Position numbers and translations under genes: made by a program. From Euglena gracilis (lineage: Eukaryota): 64,000 bases of DNA. The notes below the pieces were generated by a model. That model was not told where the DNA came from. It did not search any database and worked only from the letters and a program-made list of their open reading frames with translations. Below, piece by piece: positions 9,507 to 62,378 of this stretch (position 1 is its first letter; each line of letters begins with the position of its first letter). Location of the stretch: contig CP154954.1 of NCBI GenBank assembly GCA_039621445.1, positions 44,805,847 to 44,869,846 on the forward strand, written 5' to 3'.

Positions 9507-9537
<31 letters not shown>

Positions 9538-12500: not shown

Positions 12501-15500
12501 TTGGGATATTATTTTTGCCCAAAAATGGTCAAAATTCGGAACAGAGCGCGGAACGGAAAAAAAACGACCCGGGGTGGGGTGCCGCCTAGGGTCGGTCCTG
12601 CACCTTGGTCCTGCACCTAAACCAACCCTCCGAATTGAATACTTGCCCAGGGGCTGTAGCGTGCAAATAACGATGATATGGCTCAAAATAATTGCCGGGT
12701 TGCTGGGAAAAAGGCATGAAAAAATATGAGCACATCCATGGAAAGACACAAAAATGCACCAGAATGGACTCAGAATTGAATTATTCATTACCTCAAAAGC
12801 TGAAAAAAAAAGCGTACAATGAATGAACGCCGAAAAGCAAAAAAAAAAAACGATGACTGCTCAGGCGAATCCCATGTCACTGGACCTGAGATAACTGACA
12901 TTTCATGTCGCCCAAAAATTCGCGCATTAATGTTTTGACCCAACCAATGTCATCTCCGCATCCAGCAAACTTGGCTGGGGTCGGACCCTGTCGCTTTCCT
13001 TCTGTTGCTGTCTGGCACAGGACTGCATGAGACACAGGGGGAGAAGAGGAGTGGGAGGAGCTGGGTCAGAAACGTTTCTTCGACCCATTTCCAGGGAGGG
13101 CACGGCCGGCGCGGAGTGGGATGAGGAGGCATACTGAATCTGGCACCATTTTCATTTCCCGGCGATGGAACAGACCTAGAATTACAGCCCTCTGCCCAAT
13201 GTTTGCTTCAAGGATTCCCAAAAAAACCGTCCCAATCCCCAGGGGGGGTCACTCCACTTTCAACTAACCAGTCAGTCACTTTTCAAAAACCAGTCGCCCA
13301 CTTCCCACCCCCCCCCCCCTAGGGTGTTGGTCACTTGGCCACTAAGCCAAAAGTGGTACCCCCACATAATTTTCCGGCACCTTTGGCGCTGGGTGGCCAC
13401 TATCAGCCATTCCTGGCAGACCCCATCCCAGGAGGGGGGTCTGGAGCCAAAAATCAGTCAGTCACCCCAAAAAAAACCAGACAGGCAGCCCCCTTAGATG
13501 CACTTTGGCTTCTGTCTGGTTTAAGGCCTGGCGCTGCATTCCGCTTCTGGCCCTTTCTTCGGAGCAACTCCCAATAATTGTCCGACCCCAGACAGGCAGC
13601 CCCCCCGGGAGGTGGGGTTGGACGCATCTTAAGCAATGGTATGGTGGGGAGGGTATACCCCTTTGCCGCATTCTGGCGTGAAGCCCACTCGTGGGCTGGC
13701 TCGAAGGCAGCCCTGCCTGGAGTAGGGCGTTCGGGTCTTCATCCCACGCAATGCTTTTGGGCCGCTCTCGTTCCGGCACCATTGGCAGAGGGGGCGAGCA
13801 GATCAAACCCCCCAACTTTGTGGTCATCTCACCACTGCAAATTCGCTTTCTAAAAATGAGATTTGGAAGAATCAAGGGTTCAGTAAAATGGTGCTACTCA
13901 AAATTTCATCAAAGTGCCAAAAGGGTTCTCTGGCGTCATTTTTTTACATTTTTTATTTTTATACAAGAAAGCCCGCAAAATGACAAAATTCATAAAGTCG
14001 TTTTTTTTGTGTTGGAAATTGACAACCCCTGAACGTGCCCCCCCCCCCAAAGGCGTTGAAAGAATAATGACATAAAATTTTTGGGAGATCCCATCATCAC
14101 TTCTGTTTCCTGTAATCCAAGGCTGTAAACCACCCCACTTACAATCTGCATGGGCCCATCCTCGACTTTTAACTCGAGAGGAAAAATGAAGAAGCAGAAA
14201 GACAAACCGCACAAAAGTCGCGAAGTGCGACGAAACATCGCGTGCTTCCTCGGGTTTTTTTTTTAAACAAAAACCCATCTAATTACTCAACTACCCCGCC
14301 AAAAGCCCAGCGAAAAAGGGCACAGGTGCGGACTCCTGCACACTTCCCACTCATATCTCTCACTCATTCCCCTCCAGGGCGAACCGCCAAACCGTGTCGT
14401 ATGACCCCTGGGGGTCATAAATGCGGATTTAACATGTCAGATGGACCACTGACCGCTCAAAGCAGGGTCCTGGGTCTGAACTCCACGCCAAACGCATCAA
14501 GTCACCACGTCCTACAATTGCTGTTGGGGACGGCAATTGTTTGATGAGGCTTGCTGGTCCGTTGCACGCCCTGAACCGCAAGCAGTGGGGAAAGAAACGC
14601 CTCCCATGCGGAACCCTTTGCGTGGGCCCGGCCCTTTTGGTCCGCTGTCCCCGTGCCATCCCCAAGACAGGGGGAGGGGTGGGGCCCCAGCCGCACCGCA
14701 GCCCGGCGCACCCCCGGCCAGGGCCCCGTAGATCGGGGTCAGGCTGGGCGGGTCTGCAGTGGGGGTTGGGTCGTCCTCCGCCTCTGTTGTTGTTGTGGCT
14801 GAGGAGGAGGCCGGGGCCACGCTTCCGTTCCCGGCGCGTCCCAGAGCGCGTGGGGGGATGGCGACCGAGGGGTCGACAGGGGGACGATGGCCGGAGAAGG
14901 GGAGCCTGGGCGGGGGGAGCTGCAGGGTCAGGGGGACGGGGTCCGGGCTGGACCACATCGCCGGGACGTAGTCCCAGTCCCAGTTGGGGCCGGGCTGTTC
15001 GCCCTCCGGGACCTCGGCAGGCCCGGTCCCCCACACAACACAATGGTTTGGTGGGCATCCATGGTTTGGTGGGATCCCGCCCTGGCCAGCCCCGCTCTCT
15101 CTCAATGGGGTCTCCAACGTGGTCGACCCAAATGTGTGATGGGCTGCGGCCACCGTCACGGGGGGGGGGGGCTAGATGGTCGCGCGCATTCGGAGCGAGC
15201 CTGAAGTGCCCCCCCCCCCCCGACAGGTCAACAGCCATGCCAATCCCACACTGCCAGCGACTATCCAACGAGACAGACACATGACAAATCACCCCCGCTA
15301 CCAATGTGGCCCTGGCCTGGGCTACGTTGCGGCCTTCCGGGACGGGCCCAGGGTTCCATATAAAGGCAGGACGGAGGGTTGGACCCCCCCTCTGGCCCAG
15401 CAGGGGGGGGCACCCCCCTCCTGTACAGTGGCGCAGTCCGGATGACCGAATTTCGGCCTGAGGAAAGCGCCGGGCCGAAAATTTTGCACCCCAAAATTCC

Positions 15501-15990
15501 AATTTTGGGGCATTTTTTTTTGGGCAAAAAAAATGGCACAAAATTTTCGGCACAAAGCGCCGGAAGGGAAAATTTGACCTTTTTGGGGGTGTCCCGAGAC
15601 CCACCCCGGGGTCAGTCCGGGGGGGTGTCCATACCCCTCCACCGGTCCGGGAGGGGGGCACTCCCCTCCTCTAGCCCATACACCCTCCTTATATCGAGCC
15701 CTGGGCGGGCCCCCACCACCGCTGGTCGTCCTCCCACTCCCGCCCCGGCTCCGGCTTCCCGTTCTGGAACCGCCTCCGCCGCTCCAGCGCCTGCAGCGTC
15801 TTCTGCCGGCCTGTCAGTTCCGGCGGTGCGCCACTGCCCGCGGGCGGGGGCAGCTCGGGAGGGCCGGACATGGGGGGCCCTGGTGTGGGTGGGGACAGGA
15901 GGATGAGGGCTTGAACTGGCTTGAACTTGCCATCCAGTTCAAGCACCTTCCCGCCTCCGACACAATACCCTGAACGGAACGGGACCATGT
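5490..15990 (-). CDS. Putative multi-exon gene, protein of unknown function. Exons approx. 15990-15905, 15830-15707, 15343-15323, 15012-14720, 12103-12012, 11815-11720, 9825-9625, 8450-8280, 7620-7545, 7400-7295, 6680-6605, 6320-6115, 5600-5490
   Basis: GC3-rich open segments on the minus strand (e.g. [94 protein letters not shown]). The junctions at 15707/15343/15012 join in frame. No family recognised; gene ends uncertain. Confidence 0.55.
8575..9572. repeat. About 1-kb (TACA)n/(TATG)n microsatellite in five alternating-orientation blocks
   Basis: Read directly; orientation switches at self-complementary tacgta/gtac junctions. Confidence 0.95.
11173..11633. mobile_element. Degenerate hAT-like MITE
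   Basis: cagggcgggatttaa / ttaagctgcgccctg; flanks gcgtcacc / acgccagc (5/8). Confidence 0.6.
15344..15706 (-). mobile_element. Nonconventional intron consisting of one hAT-like MITE (element 15349-15703)
   Basis: TIRs cagggttccatataaagg / ccttatatcgagccctg; flanks gacgggcc / ggcgggcc (7/8); same family as 26421-26920. Removal joins [11 protein letters not shown] in frame. Confidence 0.8.
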
Positions 15991-16461
15991 GCTGTGCGGC
16001 GGAAAATGGGCCCATGCGTGTTTGCGACATGACAGGGGATGGCGGGAAGAAAATGTGGCTGAATTCATCCATGTGAAGCAAAATGTGGGGATTTGAATAT
16101 GCTGGGCCGAAGAAGCCGTGTGGGCATCCTGGCCTGCGTCCTCAGTAAAGCTCTTGCACTTCACGGGATACGAGGCAAAATGTGCACTCGGACACTTGCA
16201 CATGACGTACCACCTGAGGGCAAACCATTCCACACATGCATACCGTACAAGGTGACTCAAGAACATCACTTGAGCGCCGGCCAACTCCTCCACACAATTA
16301 TGGGGGAACACGCCCTGATCCACCGGAGCAATCTGACACGCAGCACGCTGCTGAATGGGTCAAACTTCTCGTCCGTGAGGTCAGCAGGGTCACACATGAT
16401 TCTGGGTACGACGGTCGGGTGGGGTTCAGTGTGGGAAGGGCCCGCTGGGTCGGCGGGGGCC

Positions 16462-18711
16462 TCAGTTGGACTTCTTGCCGGCGGCGGGCCGGGCCGCCGG
16501 GCCGCCCGCCGCGGCCCCGGCCGCGGCGCCCTGCTCCCCCTCGCGCGCTGCCTCCTGCTTGGCCGCCCCGCCGCCGCTCACCAGCATCATCGTGACGCAC
16601 ATCAGGATCATGAGCCACTGCGGCGGCCGGCCGGGCGGGCCGGGTGCGGGGAGCGCGCGACGGGGCGTGGTTTAGGCCACGTCTCCGAGGTTTCCAGACA
16701 CGATTTCGGGGGCTTTACGTGGTTTCTGGGAAAACGTGTTCATAAAATTTTAATAATTTAAAATTTTAACAAATGGGCAGGTGTGATTGTGCGTAAATTT
16801 ATGTGGCACGTCTTTTATATGAATTAAGTGGAAATTCAGGGTCCATACACACACACACACACACACAATCTTGCTTATTTATTCTTTCTAATAAATATTG
16901 CTTCCAATTTTAAGTTAGGTCGTTTTTGAACTTACATTTTTACAATAAAAATGTGTGAAATGCCCTGCATCACCTGGGGGATCAAAGCCAAACCCCCTTT
17001 TCTGGCCAAATCGTCCACACCTCTCTACAGGTTCCACAGGCAAGGCACCTTCTACTGGAGGTTTGCTCAGCCCCCCCCGAATGACACAGATAACCGTGGG
17101 GGGGCACTGCCATCCTCCAGGCTGGGCAGTCCCCCCCCCCCGGAGGAGCGGCTCATATGGCTGGCAGTTTGTTTCCTCCCGTGGACACGGCTTCCCACCA
17201 GGCCTCCTCCCCCCAGACCACCTCAGGGCACCGGCAGAGACCGACCTGTGACTGAACAGAGGCCACCGTCCATGAGGGACGCAGTGGAACCCAGCCCTGC
17301 CCCGCCCACCGGAGCCCAACCCAACCCCACTCCACCGCACACCACACGGGGGGGGGCACACGTATTTCTGGAAGAAAGACTTCTCCTCCTGCGGCGGCTG
17401 CCCTGGGCCCTGTGCACCGCCCTGGCCCGGCGCTTGCTCCCAGGGGTTGGCTTGCACTTCTTCCTGGTCCGGGGGGGGGGTCCCGCGGGCCGGCCGGGAA
17501 GAGGTGCTGGCTGGACCCCCCCTGGAGGTGGGGGGATGGGGGGGGGGGCGGGTCCGGTCGGGTGGCAGCTACTCTCAAAAACAGGCAAAAAAAGCCCAAA
17601 TCCAGCTGGGCTGGCACTTTTCAGCCAAAAGTTTGGAGGTGAAAAAGCAAAAATCACTCAAACATGCAATTTTTTTTTACCATTCTCACCCAAAAGTTTT
17701 CGGTCCAGCCCGGCTTCGCCAGCTGGCCTGAACTTTATTTCAGCGGACCTGGGGGGCGGGGGGCGAAGCCTGACTGGGAGCTGCTGGCTGGAAAAAAGGT
17801 GGCTGGCTGACTGGACCCCGCAGGGGGGGGGGTCCTTCCAGCTTAAGAAAACCCCTGCTTGCTCCGCCCGGACCCCAACGTACACGTCGTCCGGCACCGT
17901 ACTGTGGGGGGGGGGGGTGGAGCGATGAATCTGCAGTATGGATCCAGCCAACGGTTTTAGGCGGCGGAGAGCCCTGCCGACGGGTTTTGTGGTTGTCCTG
18001 CGACGGCTGCTCGGCAGGGCTCCTGGCGGTCACCTAGCCCCCCCTCCCTCTTGCCCAGAATTCGGTGTAAACTGAAATTGGCAGTGCAGAAGAGAGGCCA
18101 ACCACCACTAAAGCCAGAACGTCGAGAAGCCCACTTCCCAGGTGTGATGGGAGTTGGCCTGGCTTGACCTGTTGCTAGGCGCTGTGGCGCGAATGGAAGC
18201 AATCCCCCCACCTGGGAATACAGCGCACCCACCATCCTCCTCGACGAAAACTTGGCTTTGATTTCAGAAAATGTCTCAAACAATCACCATTGGCACACCA
18301 TTTTGTTCTGTACTTTTGGTTTTCGCCAATGCACGATTTTTTTTTATGTGGGCCGGAGAATTTTCAAAGCACATAGAACATCTTTGCGGGGTGATGCGGC
18401 ATTCGGATGGTTGTGCAAGAGGCCTAGTGGGGGATGACATTTGCAAGAAAACATTCCTTTAACATGGACAATTTTCCTTGACCGACATGAGGAAATTTAG
18501 CCTGGAAGGGGGTGAGACAGGCTTTTTGTTGACGACCTTGTTTGCGCGGGGAGCCCTCGGAGGGCAATCCCTTTTCGGGCAGGCCCCGGGGTACCCACCC
18601 AGCCCAGCGCGGCACCCCCCAAAATGGGCCGTCTCGGGGCATTTCCCAAAAGGAAACTTGGCGCTCCGAATCCCCCCCCCCCTCCTGCGCCCCCGGCCTC
18701 CTACCCCCCCC

Positions 18712-18744
<33 letters not shown>

Positions 18745-20722
18745 GGGGGGGTCTTCTGAGTTAAAAAGAAGCCTGTTTGGGGTGTGGTTTTGGTTTTGAG
18801 CCCGAAATAATTTTCTTTTTTTTAAAATGTCTCGTTCCCCCCCCCCAAAACGTCGTTTTTGGGATTGTGTGGGAACCACCTTAAAACCACCCGAGAACAT
18901 TCTTTAGACCAGGAGGGGTGTTCATCCACCCAGGGGGTAAAAAAAGGGTCCAGGGAACCCATTTCTTTAGGGTCAATTTCGGGACGAAAATTGTTTTGTG
19001 TGATTTGCGATGGAAATAGAGGAAAACTCCCTGTGGGAGGCACTCACTCACCCACCCCGGGGGAGGGGGTCGGGCGAGTTTTTAAAAAGGCCTATTAATC
19101 ACTGTCCAGTTGAGCAGTTGAGGACAAGAATGTGGGGGAGAACATCGAGAGGGGGGTATCGCCCTCCCAGGCTCCACCAGACGGGGGGGGGGGGGGGCGG
19201 CATGGGGGGGGCGGGCCGGAAAGCTGAGGCCCACCACCACGGTGTGCTTGGCCGGGGCGGGCAGGGAGCTGGGGGCGATGGCCGGCCCGGCCCCCGGGAC
19301 GGGGGCCGCCAGGGCCTCGCAGAAATTCTTGCTACCGGCCTTGAGCTTGGCCGCCACGTTCTGCAGCCCTGACAGCGAGGCCAATGGCGCATGGCCCCCA
19401 AGACGCACACAGCCATCACGTCGCGCAGGACTCCCCGGTGTACTTGGGAATGCAGCCAGGGTGGGGGACGTTTTCGGAAGGCGTGCGTGCAGAATGGTGG
19501 GGAAGGCGACGTCCTCGCACCCCACTGGCAAACCCAGCACCGCAGACCCCCCAGACAGAGTTCAGGGAAGCGGTGACCCTGACCTGATGGGCACTGGACG
19601 CAGCACATGACGCCCGGCACAGCAATCAGCCCGGAGATTTTTTTAGGACCCGGTGGGAGAGGGACCCCCCCCCTGTGGGGGTCCCTTTCCCACCGGGGAC
19701 CCATTTTTTAAGGGGGGGGGGGGGCAGTCTTGACTACCCCCCCTTGACTACTCCGGGTAGGTCAACAAAATGCAAAAAAAAAAAAACTGTGACTCAAGCA
19801 CACACCAACCAGCCCAGTGATGGCACCGCCAGCCACCGTGGGATAGAGGTTGTACTGTTCCTTGAATCCCGTGTTGAAGAGCAGGCACTGCAGAAAAACG
19901 GGACCACTACGACAATTCAACCGTTGAATTTGAGCATCTCTGTAACGGTGACATGCTGCGAGGAACACTCACTGATCGTCACCCGGAGCCCCAGAATCAA
20001 AACGAGGAGAAAAAGTGCAAAATCACGAAAATTCAAAAATCACCCCCAAAAAATGCAAAAAAATTGGGACCAAATTTACAAGCACTATACTATACTATAT
20101 GGAATTATGAGGAAAACGTCAGTTTCAAAAAAAATCTCAAAAATGCAGAAATAATCCAAAAAAAAAGTGAAAAAAAAGGGTAAATTTATTTAAAAACAAT
20201 GTGCCAAAGAGGAAAAACCCTGAAAAAATCGAAAAAATGCACAAAAAATGAGGAAAAAGGTGAAAAAAATGCGAAATGCATTCCCCCCCTTCATTGGGGT
20301 CAATTTACATCATAAAAATATATGTCATAGACCAGATCTCAGAGGTTGCCCATGTTCAGCAGTGGCACACAAATGTGGGAGAGAAACTGATTGAGCGACA
20401 TATTCCCTTTTACTGACAACCCTTCATTTGCAATGGAGAACTGCTGCGCAACTAAGAGTGGGGGGCACACTGGAGCAAGAGAAATCATGGTGTAATCGGT
20501 GGACTCTGGAGCCTCGCCGGTGAGGGTTTGAGGCACCCGCAGCAGGTACGCTCCTCCGTCGTTTGCCAGGCGCTGTGCGACAGGGAAACAGGGGCGGAGC
20601 ATGCTTATTATTGCAAATAAATTCATTTTCATTAGATTCATCAAGTTTGTTTTAAACCATATCCATGCAACTCAAAAAAATACCAAGAATCTAACACACA
20701 CTTACACACACCTAAACACACG

Positions 20723-20772
<50 letters not shown>

Positions 20773-20861
20773 GAAACACACCCAGACATACACATACACA
20801 CATGCATATGCATGCACACACACACACCCAACACACAACACCCACAACACACAACACACAC

Positions 20862-20920
<59 letters not shown>

Positions 20921-21711: not shown

Positions 21712-21775
<64 letters not shown>

Positions 21776-22684
21776 AAAATACATAATGCAAAATACTACA
21801 AAATACATACTACAAAATAACATAATGCTCATAGTGAACACAGAATACTCATCAATTCAACTTTAGAATATTCTTACAAGAATGGAAAAAACATTGGAAT
21901 GGAAAAAATAAAAAAATTGAAATGTGCTCCATCAGAATGCATGCGATAAATATCGTCAAAAATCGTCCTCCCAAAGATGACCTCTGAGAACATGCACATG
22001 GACAGTTAGGAGGTATGTCCCAACCAGGCTTCTTTTTAAGACCCCCGGGGGGGGCGGGGGGGTCCCCCCCACCCAACCAGGGTGGCGCGGGACCCCCCAC
22101 GGGGGGGGGGGGGGGGCGGGGACCCCCCCAAATTGGGCCCGTTAAACGCAATTTTCAAAAAGGTATTCGCGCCGAAAAGGTATACCCGGCGCCTCTGGCG
22201 CGGGACCCCCCCCCCCCCCCCCGGGGGGGTCCGGCCCGGACCCCCCCACCCCCCCCCCCCCCCCGGGGGGGGGGGGGGGTCAGGTTAAAAAGAAGCCTGG
22301 TCCCAACGTCACACCGTTGCTTCGGCAAAAGGAGAAACTATTGCCCTCGCCGCCACAGACCTACTGACCTACTTCGTTCGCGTGCGCAGCCCACTCCACC
22401 CCTGGAGGGAGGGAGCACCTGTCCCTTGGGCTGCCACGTCTGCCCGCCGTCCAGGGAGTGTTCCATGCCGAACGTGGGAGACCTGCGGCGGCGGCCAGGC
22501 GGGTCGTTTGGGGGTGAACCGTTCTGTTTGTTGCCACAAATAAGGCTGGGACTGTGGGAAAACTTTCGGGGTCCGCGCGACAGCGAAATGCCAGGGAAGC
22601 ACACTTTGCAGCCGTGCTGCCCTGGAGGAACAGCAGCCCAAACAGCAGCTGCAGTAGGAGCGACCTGCGCAGCGTGCGTGGCAT
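16462..22684 (-). CDS. EMC10: ER membrane protein complex subunit 10. Exons 22684-22605, 22482-22419, 21172-21083, 20572-20471, 19887-19806, 19368-~19236, ~18033-18005, ~17901-17861, 17465-~17362, 16617-16462
   Basis: Signal peptide MPRTLRRSLLLQLLFGLLFLQG, then MEHSLDGGQTWQPKG, LANDGGAYLLRVP, ISLAPCLLFNTGFKEQYNLY, and EEKSFFQKYWLMILMCVTMMLV (the EMC10 'KSFFxKYW' motif plus a TM helix). Mostly GT-AG introns that join in frame; stop TGA at 16464-16462. Confidence 0.8.
17466..17860 (-). mobile_element. MITE-derived nonconventional intron in EMC10
   Basis: Right end ttaagaaaacccctg; flanks cctggtcc / cttgctcc (6/8); left TIR eroded. Splicing at the 5|3 position of the TSD gives RAEQEEVQ. Interior resembles the repeats at ~2780-2880, 11173-11633, ~43146-43470 and ~48420-48540. 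Confidence 0.6.
20695..20918. repeat. (CA)n-rich microsatellite
   Basis: Read directly. Confidence 0.9.
21710..21773. repeat. (AAAT)n microsatellite
   Basis: Read directly. Confidence 0.95.
22025..22299. mobile_element. hAT-like MITE inside a GT-AG intron of EMC10
   Basis: TIR caggcttctttttaa / ttaaaaagaagcctg; perfect 8-bp TSD gtcccaac (22017-22024, 22300-22307). Confidence 0.9.
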
Positions 22685-22692
22685 GGCGGTCG

Positions 22693-22710
22693 CTGTGAGA
22701 CAGGAAGGCG
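22693..22710 (-). promoter_or_regulatory. Putative spliced-leader trans-splice acceptor of EMC10
   Basis: Minus strand reads ccttcctgtctcacAG, 8 nt upstream of the ATG. Inferred from euglenozoan trans-splicing. Confidence 0.45.
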
Positions 22711-24517: not shown

Positions 24518-24552
<35 letters not shown>

Positions 24553-30800: not shown

Positions 30801-30819
30801 GTAGGAGGCGGCCTGCACG

Positions 30820-36686: not shown

Positions 36687-36723
<37 letters not shown>

Positions 36724-49600: not shown

Positions 49601-52600
49601 GAAAGGGGGGGAAATGGGAAACGTGGGAAAGTGGGGAAACAAGAGAACGCTCTGAGAGGGACACTTTGACAGCTGGGAGGGGGACCAAAGGCCACCGTGG
49701 GCAACCACAGGCGTGAGCTGGGGAATGGGTAGAGCCAGGGATGTATGGGATGCCCTGAAGGGGGGGGGTGTCCGGACCCCTCCCAACACAGAGGGGGGGG
49801 GTCGAACCCCCCCGCCTCGAGACGTAAAGGAGCCAGGAAAGTCTTCATAATAATAATATAATTAATAATAATAATCAAGGATAATCAAGGGGCTGGATAC
49901 CAAGCAAATACTCTTGAAAAATCCCTGAAAAAATACCAAAAATGCTCATTATTATTTTAATTTTTTGACATGGAAACATAAAACATCCAACAAAGCCGGG
50001 GGAACTGGAGGGGGGTGGCTAATCCTCCCCAATTTGGACCATTCGCAGGTGAATAACTCGGGCCTGGCGGGGAGTTGGGGTCAAAAGGAGGTGATTCGGA
50101 AACTACAGTCCCTGGGCGTAAATTCCCCCCAGGGAGGGTTTTTTGGGCTCTTGTCCAGGGGGGGGGGGAATTCTCGGGGGGGGATTTACTCCCAGGGACT
50201 GTAGGGATGCAGTCGCTCGCGACTGAAGAAAACTCCAGGAACGAGGCCGGGGTCATGGTGATAATCGGCGGTTTTCATCAACTACCCAGGGGCTGGGGGG
50301 GGGGGGAAGGGGGTTCTACCACCCCTCTTCCCTGGTGGTAGGCTTCGCTCTTGCTCTAAAGAGATAAGAGCTCTGCCCCCCCCCCCCCCCCCGACCACCC
50401 ACCTCAATACCAACAGACCAACAGACTTCACATGCATCCCTGGGAGGGGCACATGCTGCATAGCCAGGATTTGCATGGGCCGCAAGGATGTGTTGGGAAT
50501 GGGCCAAAGCCAGACAAAGAAGTACAAAAAAGTGAAAGATAAAAAACTAAAAAAAAAAAAAAAAAAAAAATAAATGACAAAAAACATATTGAAAAAGAAA
50601 ATGGAAAAATAATAGATAAAAAAAGGAGAAAAAGAAAAATAGAGGTTAGAACTAAACTTTTTGCTGTTGGGAACTCCCCTCCACCTTGGGTGTTGGAATT
50701 GTCTGGCACACGGGGCTAATTAGCCCCTCTCTGAGGTGGGGGGAGGGGGCTGGGGATAACTATGCAAAGGGATCTATGGTATGCCATGGCACACCAAAAA
50801 CATGGATATGTGATACCCTAGGATTGTGTTTGAACGGTGCAGACCTCATCAGCAAAATCCATTTCATGTGGCCGTCAGACCTCTCGTCTTTGGAGCTCTT
50901 CCTTTCCTTCCTCTCTTCCTCCTTGCACATTGAAAAGCCCAAACCCCCACCCCCCGGGGGCTGGGCGACAGCGGGACAACAATGGTCCACACACGGCAGC
51001 AGCTGAGGGCAGAGAAGGGGACGGACGAATGACAGGAAGGAGCGGGGGCGGGGCAAAAAGCCTGAGGGGCTTCTTTGAGGCCCGAGGTTTCATCCGTGGT
51101 CCCTTGCAGCCCGGACAGTGTTTGCCGACCCGATGTGGTTGCCTGCGGAAGACGGGTTGATCATGGGGGGGGGGGAGACGTTCATTGCAATTTGATGCTT
51201 TGGCGCAGATCCCTGTTGGCCATGCCTGCAAAATCAAACAAAAATTTCTTGAGAGGAGGTGTCACCTTTTCCATTAAAACAGCTCAACTCTCAGACCAAT
51301 AATTAAATCAACAACAGCCCCTAAGGCATTCTTTTCAAAAACCCCGGGGATCAATTGGCCAGCGATTTTGCAAGCCACCAGAAAGAAGCCACAAGTTAGA
51401 TCCCTCGGGGGGGGGGTCCGGGGTCCTCCCGAAAGGGGGAAAAAAAAACGTTGAGGGGGAAATAGGACTTTTTTCGGTTTTTTGGGGGGGCTGACTTTGC
51501 TCCAAAAATTGCCGAAAATGGGCATTTTTGGCAGGTTTTGGGGGGCCAAAAATTTCCGGCGCTAAAATTTTCTACTGGCCAGCGCTGTCGGTGGATCCCC
51601 CTGTGAGGGTCCACTGGGATGCCCACTGGCAAAATTAGGACAAGCTGAAATCCAGCCCCTCTCCTTCCCCCTGGTGCACTGCGAACCCTTTCCCAGAAGC
51701 CTGCTCGAAGGTGTATGGGTTGCTGTTGGCAAAAGAAAAATCATGGCCGAAAGATCTGGAGAGCAGGGGGAAAAATCTAACCAGAACCATGAAAAGCCCA
51801 AATTCCATTTTTATCTGACTCTCGATCGCTCGTTCTTGGAACAAGTATATCAAGCATAACACACAGAACATAATGACACCCACACACACCCACTGCTCCA
51901 AAAGTGGGAAATGAAAAGGTGACCATTTCGGCGGCTGGTTCCGACGTTTGGAGGAGGAATACTGGTGTCCAGTGAAGGAGAACAGATCTGGGAAATGAGA
52001 GAGAGAATGTGGGTGTGTGTGTTTGCGTGTTTGCAGAGGTGAATTTTGGGACGCGTCTGTCTGCATCTCAGAAACTGGGTTAGGCTGGGAGGGCAAGAGG
52101 GGATGACGGGAGGGGGCAGCAAGAGACGGTGACATGGAACTCTGCGGTGGCAGGCCCCATGTTAATGGGGAAGGGAAGGAGGACCCTCGCCCATTCGGGC
52201 CTGCGAGGGCTGCAGGCAGCGGTGCGGTGGGGCTGTGGGGTCAGGACACCTCGGGAGGCCATGGAGACCAATGGTGGTGCACTCCAGCCATGACGCGGGG
52301 GCGAGGGGCACCAAGGCTGCTCTCCTGTGGCCTGCCCCCTAATGGGACCATTTGTAGTATGGGTAGTCTTGGCGTACCCCCCACCACCACCTGTGGGGGT
52401 TCGGGGATTCCCGTACAGCCCTGCCCCTCGTCCCCAGGGGGGGGGGGGGTGGGGGGCAGGGTTGCCCCTTGTCGGGTGGGTGGGTGGATGGGGCATCCGC
52501 GGGGTTAACGAGCAGGTCGTTGCCACCCTTTAGAATTCCGAAAACTATCCCGGAGCATTGTGTGCAGGGGGGTTCGACCAACCCCCCTCCCCTAATTTCC

Positions 52601-55190
52601 AGGGGTGTCGATCCTTAGGTCAAAACTTTCCTTGCTCCTTTGCCACGAAGGAATGGGCGGTACCACAGTGACCTCGCATACAGCCCTGGGGAGGGGGGGT
52701 CAATTTTGGGTTCCAAATTTTCAAAAAAAAATCAAAAAAAAAACGGAGGAAAATCCTCCAACCGCTTAACCCTCGAAGGGTGGGTCAAATGCGAACTTGC
52801 CCACCACTTTACCTTCCCCTTCCCTTCTCACGGGAGGGCAGCGTTTAAAAATTCCTGGGCATGAACCCTTCCCCTCCAGGGGGGGGGGTGTCAGTGTGGG
52901 GGGTCGGTGGGCGAAATGCCCGATACTGGGTGAGGTGAGCATTGTGTAAAATATCAGTGGCAGTCATCGTTGTTGGAAAAGGGGGAGGGGTGAATTTTTT
53001 CGATGCGACACGATGGGGAAAAGGGCACTTCCAAGCCTCGCAAAAACCATTTGAAGACCTTTAAGCCTCGTTCTAAAAAGACCCTTGCATAAACTTTTCA
53101 GATAAAAATTAATCTCCAAAAAGGATTTACATCAATCAAATACCCAAAATCTGCCCTCTTCTGACGCTTCACATCGCCCACCCCCCTTGTCGAAGACAGC
53201 CTCTTCTTGACCCATCCACGTCAATGGGACAATGGCATGTCTTCAAACAACACGCCACCACATAAAAAAAGGTTTAATCCCAACTTGTTTTTCATTTTGG
53301 TGCTGCTTCCTGACACAGAACTCGACATAAAACCCCAGTGTCAACTTTAACACCCCAAACGTTTGAAGACAGCATGGCTTTCACCACATGAGCATCGCCG
53401 GTGATCAGTGCACCGGTGAGACAGGCACACACAAGAGACGTTTTGGGGGCATTTATTAGCACCTCACTGAAAAGAGTGGGGAGGGGAGATAAGAATTCAA
53501 GAGGAGGAAATAACACAGAGAGGAGGTGTGACTGCGAGGTGAGAGACACAGCAATTCACAACCGATCACTGGCTGTCTTTGTAAAACTCCCCGACCTATC
53601 TTGACGAAAAGGGGTGGGGGGGGGCGATTTTCTCTCAGAGTCTCGGGGGAACGCCATACAAGCCAGCAACCCCCTCTCCCAGGGGAGGGAGCTGGCATTG
53701 TCACAGCGCGGAAAAATTCCCACACGTGAGGTGGTGATCCTCCCCGGCCGAAGTTGTTTTCTTTTATGACTTTGGTTCCCAAGAAAAACTTCTTTCACAA
53801 GACCAGGCACCTATGGTCACTTCCCATTTTGGTGCTCTGGTCGGCCCTGGTCGGCCCTGGTCGGCCCTGGTCGGCAAATAGTCGGCCATAGGTGGGGGGT
53901 ATCCGTCACAGAAAAAATGTGAAAGATGCAATGATTCCCTGAATTGTCCCGCGAAGATCAAAAGGAAGTGCCCCATAAGCTGAGCCATCAGAGCACAAAA
54001 CAAAAATGCAAAGGTCAATGTGCGGCTCTTCACGCAGAGATGTCAAACAATCTCTTGTTCATGTAAATAAAGGCTAAGGAGGTGAGCGTCGTATCAGATG
54101 TATTCAAGCGATCCGATGTTTGAATGGAAAAAAAGCTGGTATGAAAAACAATTTTTGACGGCATCGAACAATTCAATCATTAGCATCCTCATTCGTAACA
54201 GCCTTTTGACTGCTGATTGACTGCTTTGGCTCCTTTAAGACCACTTTGGTGGGCCAAAGCCAATTTTAGACCATTGGCCACAAGCATCTCCCCTGATCTT
54301 GTGTAATATCTTATCCATTGCACCTTGTCCAGCATCTGCATCCAGCATCGCCCAGCATCCTCAGCATCATCAGAGGTGCTTGATCCAGAGGGAAAGCTGC
54401 CGAATTCCTTCATCCATTCCCCTTCGGTCGGCCAACCACATGCAAATCGGCCCTGGTCGGCCCTGCTCGGCCCCGGTCGGAACCCCCACCTACAGGGGTC
54501 CTGAAAATCATACCTACCCCCCCCCCCCCCCGGGAAACTGTCACCTGACAGGTTGGCCGGTACCGGGGACCCTGACAACTTCCTATCATGACAGTTTGGC
54601 CGGTACCAGGGACCCTGACAGTTTCCCGGGTGGGGCATTTCAAGGGAAAGTCAATGAAAAATGACCCTGACAGGTTGGCCGGTACCGGGGACCCTGACAG
54701 TTTCCCGGGCGGGACCCTGATGGGTTCTCGGGCATGACAGTTTCCTGGGGGGGGGGGGTAGTCACCCCTGGTCGGCCCTGGTCGGCCGTAGGTGCCTGCC
54801 TGCCCAAGGCTGAGAAAGATGGGGTGAGGAGGCTTTATTTTGCCAAATTATAGTGTGCCAAAAAAGATTTTAATTGCCCCTGGAGTTTGTGGGTGGTTAC
54901 TCAACCCCAAACCCTAAAGCCTATGATATCCCATAGGCTGCGGTGGTGGTGTGTCACACACTAGTATAACCTGCCCCACACATCAGCACCCCAGCCAGCT
55001 GTGCCACAGGGCTGGTTGGGAGGCTGAAACCAGCTGTGTGAGAGGGGAAAAAATCTTTCAATCTGGACCCTTTTCGTTTGAAACTCAAACCCCAGCCCAG
55101 GCAAGGGGTGAGGTGATCAATGTTTGGGTGGCTTTTGGACATGATGGTGACCCCTGTCAACACTGAAAAGAATTTCCTTGCAGATTCTGG
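46690..55190 (-). CDS. Possible multi-exon gene(s) of unknown function (candidate exons near 54420-54310, 53990-53930, 53425-53370, 52330-52140, 51150-51060, 50930-50850, 46760-46700)
   Basis: Short unique minus-strand open segments such as EWMKEFGSFPSGSSTSDDAEDAGRCWMQMLDKVQW and CKEEERKERKSSKDERSDG. Could not be assembled. Confidence 0.25.
54514..54761. mobile_element. MITE family with ctac(C)n-ggaaactgtca ends and internal ccctgacag repeats (other copies ~27190-27480, ~33365-33880, ~34885-34980)
   Basis: Inverted ends ctacccc...ggaaactgtca / tgacagtttcctggg...gtag; shared internal gggaaagtcaatgaaaatgaccctgacagg. Confidence 0.75.
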
Positions 55191-55732
55191 TGGACTGGGC
55201 ACTCCCATGCTTGATTTTAGGTGGCTCTGAGTGGCTGGACAAACCTTTCGGTTTTGCTTCATATAAATTCAAATTGATTTCATTTTATTCATGGTATATA
55301 TTCCACTCAACCATGGTCCTTTTATGACCTTCACAATGTCCTTAGCTCAGCACGATCAAAAACCTGGTCTTAATTGGGGGCTGTGCAGTCAAGATTCAAT
55401 TTCTTGAGTGAGGTTGGGTCACCGAGGGAAAAGACGACATTCTTTAACCCCCACTGCCATAAAATTTGAAAAAAGCTTTTTTAATAATCCGATTTATATG
55501 TGATCAAATGGGAGGGGGAGGGGAAAAAGGTTCTGGCACAAAATACGAAATCATTTTTGACCCAAACCACATCTGGTCGGGGGGTTTCCACTGCCTGATT
55601 TCTGGACACCTCAAGCCCCCTCCTAAAGGAACCCCGACAGGGCCACGCCCCATCCTCCCAAAACCAGTTGCATGAAAACAGCCGGGGTTGCAAAGGGGTC
55701 GGGGGAAGGGGACTGGTGGTGTGCCACTGCTG

Positions 55733-58700
55733 TTAGCAGCGGGGCGTCGCGGCGTCGTACAGGTCCTCCGTGGCGCACGACGGCTGGCGGTACACGGCGT
55801 GGGGAGAGGCCGGCTCCGGGTGGGGGGGCCGGTCTAGCAGGCAGCCGTCCGTCAGGGCGAGCAGCTCGAACACCACCATCTCCACCGCTGCCCACAGACC
55901 GCCCCTGAGAGCGTGGGGGGGGGGGGGGCACGAACAGGCTTTTGCTTAAGGACCCCCGGGGGGGGGGTACTGGCTAGCCAATCGGCTAGACACTGGAAAA
56001 AGTGGACTAGCTAGACCCCCCCCCCCCCCCGGGGGGGGGGGGGGGGGGGGTCCAGGGGTCCCCCGGACTGGAAAAAAAATTTTCCTCCGGCGCTGTGCGC
56101 CGGAGGAAAAATGAGGTTTTTTACAGGTTTTTGGCTGATTTTGTTCAAAAAATTCCCAAAAATGGCCAAAAACGGGCATTTTTTGGCATTTTTGGGGGTC
56201 CCAAAAAAATTTTTCGGCGCTTCGCGCCGGTCACTGGAAAAAAATTTCCCACTAGCTAGCCCTGCTAGCAGACCCCCCCCACCGGGGGGGGGGGGGGGGG
56301 CTACGCAACCCACTAGCCAAATTTGGACTAGCTGCAGTCCAGCCCCCCCCCCCGGGGGGGTACTGCAATCCCTTAAGCAAAAGCCTGGGCACGAAAGGCA
56401 CACCAGCTGCGGGGGGAAACGGAATCAGCGTCATGGGTAGGTCAGGAAACAAAGCAAATGGCTGGCCCGACGTCTAACTTCAGAGAGGTCGAAAACATTT
56501 GGAGTAAACTTTCTTGACCGCAAACCGAAATGAAATAATGGAAACCCTGCGAAGCTGTCCATGCAGAGGTTCTTTTAGGATCCAGGTGGAGGGGAGTCCC
56601 CCCCCCCCGACCCCCCCCTGCCCACTGGGTACAAAAAGACTGGCAGGAAGCTTCAAAAGTGCCCAGAATTGTGTTTTCACGTATTTGTTTGCAGCAAATT
56701 GACAGAAACAGGCTACAAAAACATAAGTCTGCTGGGTGCGCCAGGGAAGAAAAAATATTTTTTGGTTGCAAGGGGTTCCCTGGACACCCCCTGGGGAAGG
56801 GGGTTCGGACCCCTGCGAACCTCCCCCCCTCCCCCCCTACAAAACCAAAAAACACTCAATTAATACCAGCCCCCCCCCCCCCGGCCCGGGTCACCAAACT
56901 TAAAAAAAAACGTTTCTGTGCCAATGTCCACCGTGGAAAGCTCTGACAGACATTACACAATAAATACAATGGGGAAGTTGTTAGCATGTTGTTGTGGCGG
57001 CCCGAAACTACTGGCCCCCCGCCCCGGGGGGGGGGGGCAGTACTTAATCCAGGGGGGGGGGAGTCAGACCCCCCGCCTTGAAGAAGATGGACCCCCCCGT
57101 TCCGTTTCCCCCCGCCCCTCTACCGCCCCGGATGGCTGCTCCGGTGCCCCGCGGTGCCTGCGTCCGCGCCCACCTCACCCTCATCGAGCTGAACCAGATC
57201 CTGCAGGATCCGGACCAGACTGAGGCCGCGCTGCGGCGCCACGCTTTGCTACGGTGGGGCCGCCCCTGGCTCGCCCTGTCGGTCTCCCCCGCACGCCCGG
57301 TTGCCCATGGGGCGACCGCGCGCCGCGCACAGACGGGTGGTCATTCACGGGAGGTTGGGTGGCCGGCGGTTGGGCCGCGGCCGGCCGCGGCCCAACCAAA
57401 ACAGTGCTTTGGTTGGGCCGCGGCATGCCGCGGCCCAACCAAAAAAAATTTTTGGTTGGGCCGCGGCATGCCGTGGCCCAACCAGGAACGAATTTTAATG
57501 ATAAAATTTTTAACTGGTTGGGCCGCGGCATGCCGCGGCCGGCCGCGGCCCAACCAAAAAAAAATTTTGGTTGGGGCGCGGCATGCCGTGGCCCAACCAG
57601 GAACGAATTTTAATGAAAATTTTTTTCACTGGTTGGGCCGCGGCATGCCGCGGCCGGCCGCGGCCCAACAAAAAAAATTTTTTGGTTGGGGCGCGGCCGG
57701 CCGCGGCCCAACCAGATTAACGTCAGAATTAGTTTCGTTGGGCCGCGGCCGGCTGCGGCCGACCGTGACCCAACCCAAAAAAAGAAACGGGTCGCGGTCG
57801 GCCGGCCCAACCCTAACCCTAACCCTAACCCAAACCCTAACCCTAACCCCAACCCCAACCCCAACCCCAACCCCAACCCTAACCCTAACCTTAATCCTAA
57901 CCCTATCCCTAACCCTAACCTTAAACCTAACCCTAACTCTAACCCTAACCCCCATCCGAGCTTCAAATAACAAAATCCCTTCTGTGTTGGCAACATACTC
58001 GGGGGCTAAGTCGTTTTTGTGGCTCACTTTGGCATAGGCGGGGGGGCTCTGCCCCCCCCCCCGCACCCCCCCCTCAAATAACAAAATCCCTTCCATGTTG
58101 GCAATATACTTGGAGGGCTAAGTCCTTTTTGTGCAAATTTTGACTTATATTGAAAATCCAATGGGGAGAGGTGTTCTTTTGCCAAAAGTGGCCCAAAATG
58201 GATTTGGGTTCGCTGGGAACGTTGTAGAGACCAATCTAACAACGTTGAGCGGGAAATATTCTGCTGTTTGGACAAGAATTGTAACCCTAACCCTACTCCT
58301 TCAAATAACCTCATAAACTCTGTTTGGCCACAGTGAAACGCCATCATGAAATCCTTTGCCAGCAAAAAAAACCGAAAATTAAAAGAATAAAAAAAAGAAT
58401 TAAAAAATAAATAAATAAACCAAAGAATAAATAAAAACAACCAAAAAATAAAATAAAAAACAAAAGAAAAGTCATGTAAAATGACATCAGGTGTGGGGGG
58501 GTGTGGGGGGGGGCGGGGGGGGGGGTGGCGGGCGTGTGCAGGGTCTGGGGCGTGATAAATTGGCCCCTACAAGGTACCAGCTACCCCAAAGAGCCGCCCA
58601 ACTAGGGTTAATACACATGGGGGGACCCTCGCTCGGCGCCTTCGGCGCCTCGCTCGGGTCCCCCCATGTTTTTAACCCTAGTTGGGCGGCTCTTTGGGTT

Positions 58701-61700
58701 CGCTGGGTACCTTGTAGAGACCAATCTAACAACGTTGAGCGGGAAATATTCTGCTATTTGGATAAGGATCGTAACCCTAACCCTACTCCTTCAAATAACC
58801 TCATGAATTACTTTTGGCCACAGTGAAATACCATCAGGAAATTCTTTTGCAGTAATAAAAAATAAAAAATAAAAATAAAAAAAAGAAAAATAGTAAACAA
58901 GAAATAAATAGTACGGTGGTTTGCAGAACAGTGCTCGGACAGTCATGGGAGGTTGGGTCGCGGTCGGCCGCGGCCGGCCGCGGCCCAACCAAAAAAATAA
59001 TTTGGTTGGGCCGCGGCATGCCGCGGCCCAACCAAATCGATTTTTTGGCGATAAAAAATTCGGTTGGTTGGGCCGCGGCCAAACCAATTTAAAATTTTGA
59101 AAGCCAAAATTCGCCGTGGTTGGGCCGCGGCATGCCGCGGCCCAACCAAAATTCTGTTTTGGTTGGGCGACGGCCGGCCGCGGCCGGCCGCGGCACCCAC
59201 CTCCCACAGACCAACCTCCCGTGACATCCCACCCGCGCACAAACAGCACAGACAGCGACCCCGGAATGCGTGCGACCCGCGATTCTCGGCCCCGCGCACG
59301 CAGAAAGGGAAGGGGAAAAGAAGATGGACCGGGGGGTTAAAGAAGATGGCCCTGAGGGGGTAAAAGAAGATGGACCCCCCCGGATTAATTACTGCCCCCC
59401 GGGGGGGGGGGCAGCAGTTTCGGGCTGCCGTTGTTGTTTCTCTTGGTTGAGGCTGTTGTCAGCCACAGCAGTCCGGGTCTCATCAAAAACTCCAACGAAT
59501 CATGGAAAAAAATTCATGAAGTTATTTGAATGGGTAAGGTCGAATTCTTGTGCATATCATTCAATCCTTCCTAAAGAATGTCATAATGTTTGCCTCCACA
59601 GGTGCTCAGTGAATCCAAAGAGTCGTGAAACTGAGGTTACACTACGTCTCAAGGTTATTCACGTGGCACCGTTTCGAGGTTTTTCACGAGGGTTAAAAAA
59701 TGAAAAAACCGAAAAAAAAATTTGTGGTGGTCACTTTCCGTTGGCAGGAAGCTGAACCTGCAGTCCCAAAATACTTATATTTTGTGCCTTGTGATTCCTG
59801 TTCCTTCCCCAGTCGCACAATGACCGAGTGGACAGTGCTGCATATCACCGACACAATTTAACCCCTAATCTGTCGTTCATCCGCAGCCGCTCCACTGCAG
59901 CACGCCGGCACAGTCCCATTGTGTTCATGCAGGACGGGGCATCTCCCCACACCAGCCGTTCCACCATGAACTTTTTGAGTAGGAACCGTGTAAATTTGCT
60001 GACCCCCTGGCCTCCGCAGTCCCCCGATTTAAATCCGGTGGAATACTGCTGGGCTTGGCTTGCTTCCCGCATTGTTGGGAAGCGCTTTTTGTCATGTGAT
60101 GAGCTGTGGACAGCTCTCCAACGGGAGTGGTCCCAGGCCTCCTACCCTGATCCCAAATTTGTATGGCAGCATGGTCCGTCGTTTGACGGCTGTGCAGGTG
60201 GCCAAGGGCCTGCACACCCGCTATTAAACAACATAAGAGGCACCAGGGGAGTGTGTCAAGCGATATTTGTCACCCGATGTGCTGCTTTGCCTGTCATTTG
60301 AACGTCATCTCACAGAAACAGAATTTTTCATTTTTTAACCGACGTGAAAAACCTTGAAACGGAGCCACATGAATAATCTTGAGACGTAGCGTAACACACA
60401 TTGACATTGGGGACAAGCGAGGGGTCAAATGTGCTGAGCGAAGGTCCCCTGCACCTCAGTTGAGCAACTCTTTGGGTTCGCTGGTGCCTTGTGGGGATCA
60501 ATTTGACCACATTATGATGCGACCCGATTGGGGTTGGACCGTTGTCGTCGGGCAGTGCTCGTGAATGCCCACCCCTGGGGAAGGACCCACCGGGGGGGGG
60601 GGGGGCTGGCCTGGCCTTGCCCTTCAGGCTGACGCCCTCCAGCCGGCGGGCGACCACCCGCCGCTCCACCGCTTCGTGCAGCTGCGGCCCGATGAGGATG
60701 CGCGTCTTGCGCTCCTTGTTGAGCCCCTCCAGCCGGCTTGGCCGCAGACGCCCCTCTCGGCCGGGCCCACCCACAGGAAAGGGGGGCCGAGCCCACGACA
60801 CCAGCCCGCCTAACGCCCACAACTGCCAGCGAGCGGCGGGGGCGGGTAGGGGAGGGCGGGCCTGGCCGCCACGTTGACCACGTCCCCCACCACGGTGTAG
60901 TTCATGCGGTGCTGCGAGCCGAAGATGCCCGCCCGGACCTGCCCCGCCTCCAGGCCCATCCGCCCCGTGAGGCGGAGGCGCCGGGCACCCAGACTGGGGG
61001 GGGGGGGAGGGACGCTCGCCGGGGGGGGGGGGGGGTTGGGGCACGGTGTGACGGCGCAGCGTCCCTTTGCAGGGCGCTGGCCGCAGTCCCACCGTGCCGG
61101 GGCAGCGGTCCCCGACGGAGCTGAGTGGACTGAGATGGGCACGGCACGGAAGGTACCGGCAAACCCCCACCGCCGATCAGAAGCCCTATCAGTCTGCTAT
61201 TCTGCACGTTGGTTAGCGCCGGGTAACGCCCGGGGGGGGGGGGGGGCTTCTGTCAGGCACAGGTACAAGCTTTTATCAAGCATTGTTCCTTTGGGGGGGT
61301 TTAATTTTAGAACTTTGGTTGAAAATACCGAGGGGGCTTCTACCAGGGAAAGGTTACCATACCTCTTATCGCCTCCGACTCTTGGAAATTCCGACTGGCG
61401 GGCGGTGATGGTGATGGGGTGCAAAAAAACGGGAAGGTCCCCAGGACCCCCCCCACCAAAAGAGGTCAAAATTTTCCTTCCGGCGCTTTGTGCCGAGACT
61501 TCAGGCACTTTTTATTTAGACAGCTATTTTTGCTCAAAAAAGTGCAAAAAAATGGCAGTTTGGTCAATGATTTTTGGCCAATTTTGGGAGCAAAAGTTTT
61601 CGGCCCAGCGCTTCGCAATTTGGGACAGGGACTTCTATTCTGTTGGGGTTTGGTACTTGGGCTGGGGGACAAAGTCCCGAGGGCGGTTTGCTGGTCTTCC

Positions 61701-62378
61701 AAAATGACACATGAGCCAATATGACCCCAACACGGCACCTTCCTTGAAATTGGAGGGGGGGGGTTGAGTGGGAGGTGGCAGGGGCACACGCCGCAACCCC
61801 CCCAGCCCCCCCCCCCCCCCGCACCCTCCCGGCCTTCGGCAGGCGCGCCGCGGGCGGAGGCCGGGGCCGTCCTGCCCGTGCAGCATCCAGTCCGCGCACT
61901 CCAGCGCCGCGCAGCACGCCCGGAACTCATGGTCCGCCGTGGGCAGGCTCCGGCTTAAGGACCACGGGGGGGACGCTGGCTGGCCATTTTGCTGGACGCT
62001 GGGGAGAACAGGAGGTCTTGCCACCAGCAACACCTCCCAGGGGTCCCTGACGGAAAAAACGTTTTTTTTTTCCTCTGGCTGTGCGCCGAGGTTGAATGAG
62101 GATTTTAATATGTTTTTGGCCCGAAAAATTCCCCAAAACAGACATTTTTGGCATAATTTGGTGGTTAAAAATCCTTGTGCCAGTGACTGGGAAAAACTCT
62201 GCCAGCCCTGCTAGCAGGCCCGGAGGGTCCACCAGTATTTCCACAAATTTGGCCAAATTTGGACTACCTGCGGTCCATCCCCTTCCCGGGGGGGGGGGGG
62301 GGAGGTACTGCGAACCCTTAAGCAGAAGCCTGGCCACGGGGGACGGCGTGTTCCAGAATGCCATGACACAGTCCCCGG
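55733..62378 (-). CDS. Class III adenylyl/guanylyl cyclase catalytic domain, 3' exons (~62378-62336, 61938-~61877, ~60984-60868, 60739-60617, 55889-55733); 5' part not found in window
   Basis: Spliced translation [28 protein letters not shown]...[40 protein letters not shown]...RILIG...VSLKGKAVEMVVFELL. Catalytic Asn/Arg (NVASR) intact, with Thr at the substrate-specifying position as in class IIIb-type adenylyl cyclases. Confidence 0.9.
55935..56387. mobile_element. hAT-like MITE nested in the cyclase intron
   Basis: Perfect 17-bp TIR caggcttttgcttaagg / ccttaagcaaaagcctg; perfect 8-bp TSD ggcacgaa (55927-55934, 56388-56395). Confidence 0.92.
57132..57253 (+). CDS. Isolated plus-strand coding-like exon, possibly a Merlin/IS1595-like transposase N-terminus
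   Basis: ATG...HLTLIELNQILQDPDQTEAALRRHALLR|GT with strong GC3 codon bias. The family assignment is resemblance only. Confidence 0.35.
57368..57811. repeat. Array of about 9 copies of a 30-bp palindrome (ggttgggccgcggcatgccgcggcccaacc and variants) with A/T spacers
   Basis: Read directly; the consensus unit equals its own reverse complement. Confidence 0.9.
57808..57951. repeat. Interstitial telomeric repeat (CCCTAA)n with CCCCAA variants
   Basis: About 24 hexamers read directly. Confidence 0.9.
58575..58710. repeat. Foldback hairpin element
   Basis: cccaaagagccgcccaactagggttaa...catggggga / tcccccatg...ttaaccctagttgggcggctctttggg. Confidence 0.8.
58951..59197. repeat. Second array (about 5 copies) of the same palindrome
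   Basis: Read directly. Confidence 0.85.
59640..60391 (+). mobile_element. Internally deleted Tc1/IS630-mariner transposon with a transposase remnant
   Basis: 49-bp imperfect TIRs (cactacgtctcaaggttattcacgtgg... / ...ccacatgaataatcttgagacgtagcg) flanked by TA on both sides. Confidence 0.9.
59828..60227 (+). pseudogene. Tc1-like DDE transposase C-terminal fragment (frameshift near 60140)
   Basis: VFMQDGASPH...WPPQSPDLNPVEYCW...WSQ, then LIPNLYGSMVRRLTAVQVAKGLHTRY* in a shifted frame; 35 residues between the second D and the E. Confidence 0.9.
60740..60867 (-). other. Nonconventional intron (128 nt)
   Basis: Minus strand ggcCAG...CTGcggcc|A with no GT-AG. Removal restores the conserved [12 protein letters not shown]. 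Confidence 0.85.
61939..62335 (-). mobile_element. Nonconventional intron consisting of one hAT-like MITE (element 61944-62332)
   Basis: TIRs caggctccggcttaagg / ccttaagcagaagcctg; flanks gccgtggg / gccacggg (6/8); homologous to the free copy at 55935-56387. Removal restores [11 protein letters not shown]. Confidence 0.85.

Follow-up and report, generated by a model that had tools for sequence, protein, structure and literature searches.

Transposable elements with 8-bp target site duplications in a 64-kb stretch of Euglena gracilis, and a copy at an intron position of an adenylate cyclase gene

The origin and the abundance of the nonconventional introns of euglenids have been open questions for three decades. 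The splicing code of these introns, 5'-N3CDG-/-CH'GN5-6|R, was set genetically by knock-ins, the 3-nt spacer being strict and a spacer of 5 nt optimal (Nomura et al. 2025, PNAS, PMC12501133). In Euglena agilis 71.8% of the introns are nonconventional, and 69.1% of these are "slidable" through repeats at their junctions (PMC12501133). An origin from MITEs (miniature inverted-repeat transposable elements) has been a conjecture since 2014, with the inverted repeats as its sole basis; euglenid transposable elements were then unknown (PMC3935182). A review lists terminal inverted repeats (TIRs) CAG/CTG at +4 to +6 and -8 to -6 together with junction repeats that are "TSD-like", that is, like target site duplications (TSDs) (PMC11282704), and the knock-in study mentions MITE-like elements no more firmly than as a possible source, its main text being without the word "duplication" (PMC12501133). 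Here we describe a stretch of 64,000 nt of the E. gracilis genome (GenBank assembly GCA_039621445.1, contig CP154954.1, positions 44,805,847 to 44,869,846; called the window below) which supplies a concrete case: free MITE copies whose 8-bp duplications are perfect, and a family member of one of them that makes up the whole of a predicted nonconventional intron in an adenylate cyclase gene.

A related situation is known from the introners of Micromonas, Aureococcus, dinoflagellates and Fritillaria, where likewise a short non-autonomous transposon with TIRs inserts into an exon and, together with its TSD, supplies splice signals; these elements are removed by the spliceosome, which is sometimes relaxed, and their splice site stems partly from a TSD of 3-5 nt (PMC11282704). 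The Euglena elements differ from introners in that their removal would be carried out by the separate nonconventional system, with 3 and 5 nt measured from the stem, and in that one whole 8-bp TSD would be taken out, in both orientations alike. With the published euglenid introns the two nonconventional introns of the cyclase gene (61939-62335 and 60740-60867) share the CAG at +4 to +6, the CTG at -8 to -6, the 3- and 5-nt spacers, the following purine and the lack of GT-AG borders (PMC12501133). They are set apart by the body of the first of them, which is a member of a transposon family with free copies bearing perfect 8-bp TSDs. Intron 4 of gapC in E. agilis strain ACOI 323, which we liken to our case by description and not by sequence, is nonconventional and polymorphic within the species. 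It was reported in 2016 as newly gained in one strain and has eight-nucleotide direct repeats at its junctions, as a fresh insertion would look; its authors ascribed these repeats to double-strand-break repair (PMC4770533). Our literature search yielded no statement that 3+5 nt equal one TSD, nor any report of one family having copies both free and in introns, and supplements outside its reach may bear on this.

An earlier reading of the window from its letters (the original prediction) had reported free MITEs at 22025, 26421 and 55935 with CAGG/CCTG ends and perfect 8-bp TSDs, and direct reading agrees with it: all three elements start with CAGG and end with CCTG, and 15-16 of their 16 terminal bases form an inverted repeat. 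The elements of the window, which occur at a density of about one per 6 kb (Table 1), have the TIRs, the TSD of fixed length, the several copies and the lack of coding capacity by which MITEs are recognized. Several of the families contain internal hairpins with long C runs followed by long G runs of up to about 20 each (e.g., at 22200-22285 and 56010-56050); these runs were the source of many spurious self-matches. A blastn search with six window elements as queries gave a single match of 31 nt, regarded as chance. A metagenome scan with the end motif of family B gave at least 119 loci with one match apiece, also taken as chance, and no extra copies.

The duplications were compared with several chance controls. 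The window holds 1175 pairs of CAG and CTG which are 60-3000 nt apart and have a terminal complementarity of at least 8/10. Six of these pairs are flanked by a repeat of at least 7/8, and in four of them the repeat is perfect. When the flanks were moved outward (five offset-flank controls) no pair had a perfect repeat and 0-4 had at least 7/8; in 20 shuffles a perfect repeat appeared once, in one shuffle. Among the 50 pairs with a complementarity of at least 13/16 a TSD of at least 6/8 is present in six, and the corresponding numbers were 0-2 in each of eight offset controls and 0-2 in each of six one-sided register shifts. For all seven TSD-bearing elements the best register corresponds to a repeat length of exactly 8, over 6, 7 and 9-11. 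At position 3 of the TSD there is a pyrimidine (C/T) in 7/7 elements and at position 6 a purine (A/G) in 6/7 (nominal P 0.0009, post hoc). Such a pattern hints at a target preference that is palindromic, nnYnnRnn; it would also meet the requirement for a purine at the start of the exon in either orientation.

Two further elements are located where introns had been predicted. The copy at 15349-15703, aligned over its whole length with the free element at 26421-26920, is identical in 274 of 325 positions (84%), with a score of 245.5 versus 41 +/- 9 for 30 shuffles. The copy at 61944-62332 and the free element at 55935-56387 are identical in 296 of 360 positions (82%), with a score of 308.5 versus 35 +/- 8 for shuffled sequences. 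The TSD copies read GACGGGCC and GGCGGGCC (7/8) in the former case and GCCGTGGG and GCCACGGG (6/8) in the latter. With alignment scores far above those of the shuffles we concur with the original prediction, which had placed 15344-15706 and 61939-62335 in the families of the free MITEs and had given the same TSD values.

The element at 61944-62332 is embedded in a gene. In its minus-strand flanks we read motifs of class III cyclases, and the open reading frame (ORF) 60810-61196 matches adenylate cyclases of the PDB (E = 7e-5) as well as Pfam PF00211 (E = 0.0013, which falls short of the curated cut-off). Among 1.84 billion representatives searched there were 38 matches, the best six being 67-82% identical over one exon, and protein P0069 (EukProt EG_transcript_1910) is 90% identical over one cyclase exon. 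A protein derived from the gene's own transcript was sought with the cyclase exon beside the element; there was no match among proteins of 336-2000 aa, and a further search gave only the 90% relative and P0035. Searched singly, the two exons flanking the element, which are too short alone, gave nothing relevant in PDB or Pfam. The exons were placed by mapping P0033, P0034, P0035, P0036 and P0069 back onto the window, and the exons on both sides of 61939-62335 match P0033, P0034, P0036 and P0069. One copy plus 8 nt is present at an intron position of the conserved cyclase domain.

For this position we compared alternative excisions by their summed score and their gap columns against the four homologues (Table 1, last rows). 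The length given by the published rule is the sole gapless one which keeps the frame against all four homologues, and therefore the excised part has to be the element plus exactly 8 nt. As positions 4-5 are not alike in the two copies of the TSD, one can ask whose bases are retained. With the bases of the upstream copy the joint reads P-V-A (P-V-E in P0033, P-V-K in P0069) and the score is 623; with those of the other copy it reads P-T-A and the score is 607. The P-V-A joint thus points to the upstream TSD copy as the source of the five retained bases, in line with the rule. Cuts placed deeper within the last three bases of the TSD, which both copies share, yield an identical message, and homology is equal for these cuts and for the rule. 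The ends of the predicted intron are GGC-CAG and CTG-CCCAC followed by G, with no GT-AG.

The same gene contains a second predicted nonconventional intron at 60740-60867, which begins with GGC-CAG and ends with CTG-CGGCC followed by A, again with no GT-AG. Its removal gives a score of 1209 and no gaps versus at most 1165 for the alternatives. As this intron obeys the 3/5 rule, the published code seems to operate in the adenylate cyclase gene. In minimum energy folds computed with the 3+5 flanking nucleotides the CAG at +4 to +6 pairs exactly with the CTG at -8 to -6 in seven of eight sequences; the eighth is this 128-nt intron, for which two of the three pairs are in register.

Two other introns of the cyclase gene (minus strand) were looked at. 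The ends of the intron at 60978-61862 carry a 9-nt direct repeat, GCCTCCGCC, with the copies 882 nt apart. The intron before the first cyclase exon (62392-62400) ends with CTG and GGCAA followed by A; these last intronic bases GGCAA encode G-K, as found in P0069 just before the same point, and resemble a TSD relic, the upstream exon being beyond the window.

Table 1. Elements, introns and exons in the window, and alternative excisions at 61939-62335 (scores and gap columns against four homologues)
Feature	Position	Strand	Description
Family-C MITE	22025-22299	.	275 bp, first bases CAGGCTTCTTTTTAAG, TSD GTCCCAAC at 22017-22024 and 22300-22307, 8/8
Family-A MITE	26421-26920	.	500 bp, first bases CAGGGTTCGATATAAG, TSD GTTCAGCC on both sides, 8/8
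Family-B MITE	55935-56387	.	453 bp, 16/16 TIR from CAGGCTTTTGCTTAAG, TSD GGCACGAA on both sides, 8/8
MITE	17441-17857	.	417 bp, TSD CTTGCTCC on both sides, 8/8
MITE	2107-2690	.	584 bp, 16/16 TIR, TSD 7/8; within conventional GT-AG intron of beta-COP gene fragment
MITE	987-1569	.	583 bp, 14/16 TIR, flanks CCCTACCA / CCCACCAC: 4/8, or 7/8 allowing one lost base
Decayed family-C copy	18518-18775	.	TSD past recognition, 2/8
MITE, further family	48548-48971	.	424 bp, first bases CAGGGTTGTATGGGAA, TIR 15/16; G-rich flanks, TSD 5/8, uninformative
Relative of the copy at 48548-48971	49736-50442		no clean duplication
Additional element copy	53804-54798		no clean duplication
Candidate nonconventional intron	15344-15706	-	family-A copy 15349-15703 + 3+5 nt, TSD 7/8
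Exons of class III adenylate/guanylate cyclase catalytic domain	60613-62403	-	about 62403-62336, 61938-61863, 60977-60868, 60739-60613
Predicted nonconventional intron, adenylate cyclase gene	61939-62335	-	family-B copy 61944-62332 (389 nt) + 3+5 nt = 397 nt, TSD 6/8
Second nonconventional intron, adenylate cyclase gene	60740-60867	-	128 nt, N3-CAG...CTG-N5 then A
Removal by published rule (from 3 nt ahead of CAG through 5 nt past CTG)	62335..61939	-	397 nt, score 623, 0 gap columns
Removal 3 nt shorter than rule			394 nt, score 579, 4 gap columns
Removal 3 nt longer than rule			400 nt, score 583, 4 gap columns
Removal of element alone			389 nt, score 301, frame lost, 0 gap columns
Removal off by one			396 / 398 nt, score 300 / 302, frame lost, 0 gap columns
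Unspliced			0 nt removed, score 301, frame lost, 7 gap columns

We propose the following mechanism. Several families of non-autonomous cut-and-paste elements (MITEs) with the ends CAG(G) and (C)CTG duplicate an 8-bp target on insertion. When such an element sits within an exon that is transcribed, its ends would pair in the RNA, and the nonconventional system, working by the 3/5 rule that we take from print, would cut at a distance of 3 nt ahead of the CAG and of 5 nt past the CTG. The excised part would then consist of the element and 3+5 = 8 nt, equal to one copy of the duplication. If the duplication is written t1-t8, the intron would run from the left copy's t6 to the right copy's t5, and the message would retain t1-t5 of the left and t6-t8 of the right copy, i.e., one intact 8-mer with the sequence that existed before the insertion and without a scar. 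Either orientation would be spliced alike because both ends carry CAG/CTG, and the next exon would get its purine from t6 or, if the element is turned round, from the complement of t3. That 3 nt and 5 nt add up to one 8-bp TSD in either orientation had been the core of the original prediction, and this arithmetic does follow from the CAG/CTG ends and the published N3/N5 layout. Its wider claim that the splicing code is matched to the ends of the transposon is upheld in part, the element at 61944-62332 plus 8 nt fitting the cyclase frame and only one of the seven elements being so backed.

We infer from the sequence that the copy in the cyclase gene is spliced in vivo, that its insertion created the intron and that such insertions are a general source of these introns. 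Altogether we consider it probable, with some reserve, that insertion of a MITE followed by 3/5 excision explains the intron 61939-62335 and such introns generally. It is possible, and to our minds just short of an even matter, that code and transposon are matched to the base with insertions erased either way, that the target preference supplies the wanted purine and that MITEs are the main source of the about 70% of introns that are nonconventional. If the proposal is true, the length spectrum of the junction repeats, with its ceiling of 8, would date intron gains. The count 3+5=8 ties a genetically defined splicing code to a property of a transposase, and with it the conjecture can be put to the test genome-wide in the data that exist for E. 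agilis and E. gracilis. We regard the idea as an older hypothesis made sharper and testable, and not as a new kind of system.

The other elements were inspected for signs of an exonic environment. Known exons have a coding signature with a GC content at codon positions 1/2/3 of 0.62/0.46/0.87 (GC1, GC2 and GC3). The candidate 15344-15706 fits N3-CAG...CTG-N5, and its fold pairs the CAG with the CTG. In the 120 nt upstream of it (15826-15707, minus strand) GC3-GC2 is 0.40, a value attained by 0.07% of the window positions, so that the sequence is coding-like up to the element. In the 120 nt downstream it is 0.15, attained by 11% of the window positions and not coding-like. No homologue was found for these flanks. 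That 15344-15706 is an intron is thus plausible from its sequence. The third candidate of the original prediction, 17466-17860 with a TSD of 6/8, had to be redrawn as 17441-17857 with a TSD of 8/8; its flanks are without the pattern GC3 > GC1 > GC2 of known exons, neither of them being clearly coding-like, and its status as a candidate intron is unsupported by the sequence. The flanks of 22025-22299 and 26421-26920 contain stops in all frames after rule-based removal, and the DNA around 22025-22299 is probably non-coding. The element at 55935-56387 adjoins a coding-like stretch (55777-55908, minus strand), and its opposite flank has stops. The elements clearly insert anywhere. Of the claim that MITE copies form entire introns there remains the case of 61939-62335 with its cyclase homology; for 15344-15706 the upstream flank alone is coding-like, and for 17441-17857 the flanks are not clearly coding. 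The verified intronic copies amount to one, and the family members in this one window are 82-84% identical; an introner in the strict sense would comprise many near-identical copies in unrelated genes.

A number of observations weigh against the proposed mechanism. Only one of the seven TSD-bearing elements is at an intron position backed by homology, one lies within an intron of the conventional kind, the surroundings of two seem to be non-coding and three could be assigned neither way. The homologues used for the cyclase gene are paralogues or orthologues with an identity of at most 90% and do not represent its own transcript. The junction 8-mers of the intron 60740-60867 agree at 2/8, without a TSD relic, and for the intron between 61863 and 60977 there is no junction which is both best by homology and in accord with N3/N5, nor is there a GT-AG. 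The pattern at TSD positions 3 and 6 was noted post hoc, in seven elements. A scan of 33 translated stretches from the window brought up no transposase. From the literature it has to be added that in E. agilis junction repeats also flank conventional introns, 84.4% of all introns having them, and that 38.8% of the annotated nonconventional introns are without the signature (PMC12501133).

It could be coincidence that 3+5 equals 8: the MITEs would then be ordinary parasites which are mostly found in non-coding DNA and older introns, and nonconventional introns would arise otherwise. The location of 2107-2690 within a conventional intron, the non-coding flanks of 22025 and 26421, the rule-obeying 128-nt intron without a TSD relic and the direct repeats at conventional introns are all in keeping with this explanation, which we nevertheless regard as unlikely. 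The 397-nt cyclase intron contains solely the element and 8 nt, and therefore no older intron can have served as landing site for 61944-62332. Moreover the ends of the elements bear just the CAG/CTG needed for splicing, at the needed distance from the edges of the TSD, and an 8-nt repeat is known at a newly gained intron (PMC4770533). The repeats of that gapC intron have been explained by the repair of double-strand breaks (PMC4770533), and the 8-nt junction repeats of the window might accordingly be repair scars and not duplications made by a transposase. This is very improbable, since here the 8-nt repeats flank multi-copy families with inverted repeats at non-coding sites too, four of them are perfect and the length is always 8; a fixed length of 8 speaks for the staggered cut of a transposase and not for variable microhomology. 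A spread at the RNA level, in which excised circular introns would enter new sites by reverse splicing or reverse transcription (intron transposition), seems slightly more improbable still. Nonconventional introns do come out as full-length circles (PMC11282704), but a copy made in this way would bring along 3+5 nt of its donor site and would not be flanked by the new target in direct duplicate; the four copies whose direct 8-bp repeats are perfect contradict such a spread. Insertion of a MITE followed by 3/5 excision remains the explanation that we prefer.

The TIRs of hAT elements are short and commonly begin with CAG, and CAG-type ends as in the window are typical of hAT. The hAT-like label of the original prediction is in agreement with these ends and with the TSD length, 8 being the best register in 7/7 elements; the absence of a transposase among the translated stretches does not help it. 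The hAT element Hermes also produces an 8-bp TSD, and it prefers targets of the form nTnnnnAn (PMC10368747). Such a preference is not evident here, with T at position 2 in 3/7 and A at position 7 in 2/7 elements (n being small). The mechanism could be the same with elements that are not hAT, such as non-autonomous Merlin elements or those of a different superfamily making 8-bp TSDs (P, Mutator-like and others), a serious contender to which we would give about a third of our belief. The genome of E. gracilis is known to contain two Merlin families with 8-bp TSDs (PMC8101967), and our literature search found no report of hAT in Euglena, with the reservation that supplements outside its reach may bear on this. 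Merlin resembles the window elements as a DNA transposon of the same genus whose TSD of 8-9 bp fits in length, but its termini are given as 5'-GG-3' and the window elements start with CAGG, a comparison made by description of the Merlin ends (PMC8101967). The assignment to hAT is unproven, and as judged from the sequence the apt label would be a superfamily making 8-bp TSDs.

The window contains further genes or gene-like regions. At 1846-5115 (minus strand) an exon pair encodes residues 830-908 of the 945-aa beta-COP protein P0002 (transcript-derived, EukProt, record GGOE01019192) with 100% identity. By this identity and by the 90% match of a cyclase exon to P0069 the window belongs to the nuclear DNA of a Euglena species. 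Both junctions of the two exons are conventional GT-AG, and there is no nonconventional intron. None of the first 829 residues is encoded in the 59 kb upstream, whichever strand is read, and the locus would be a gene fragment unless its introns are enormous. A group of seven ORFs (297-644 aa) that overlap one another is found at 8037-10276, open on both strands; three of them were scanned and had no Pfam match, and these open frames may be compositional rather than a gene. Exon-like pieces of a gene with TPR_10/TPR_12 repeats (nephrocystin-3 / kinesin-light-chain-like) are spread over about 32100-37200 (minus strand), the ORF 36292-37161 having a Pfam E value of 1.9e-16. Junctions for this gene (32-37 kb) drawn by eye from the repeat periodicity were ambiguous and were dropped. 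Coding-like stretches continue beyond the TPR pieces to about 44.3 kb.

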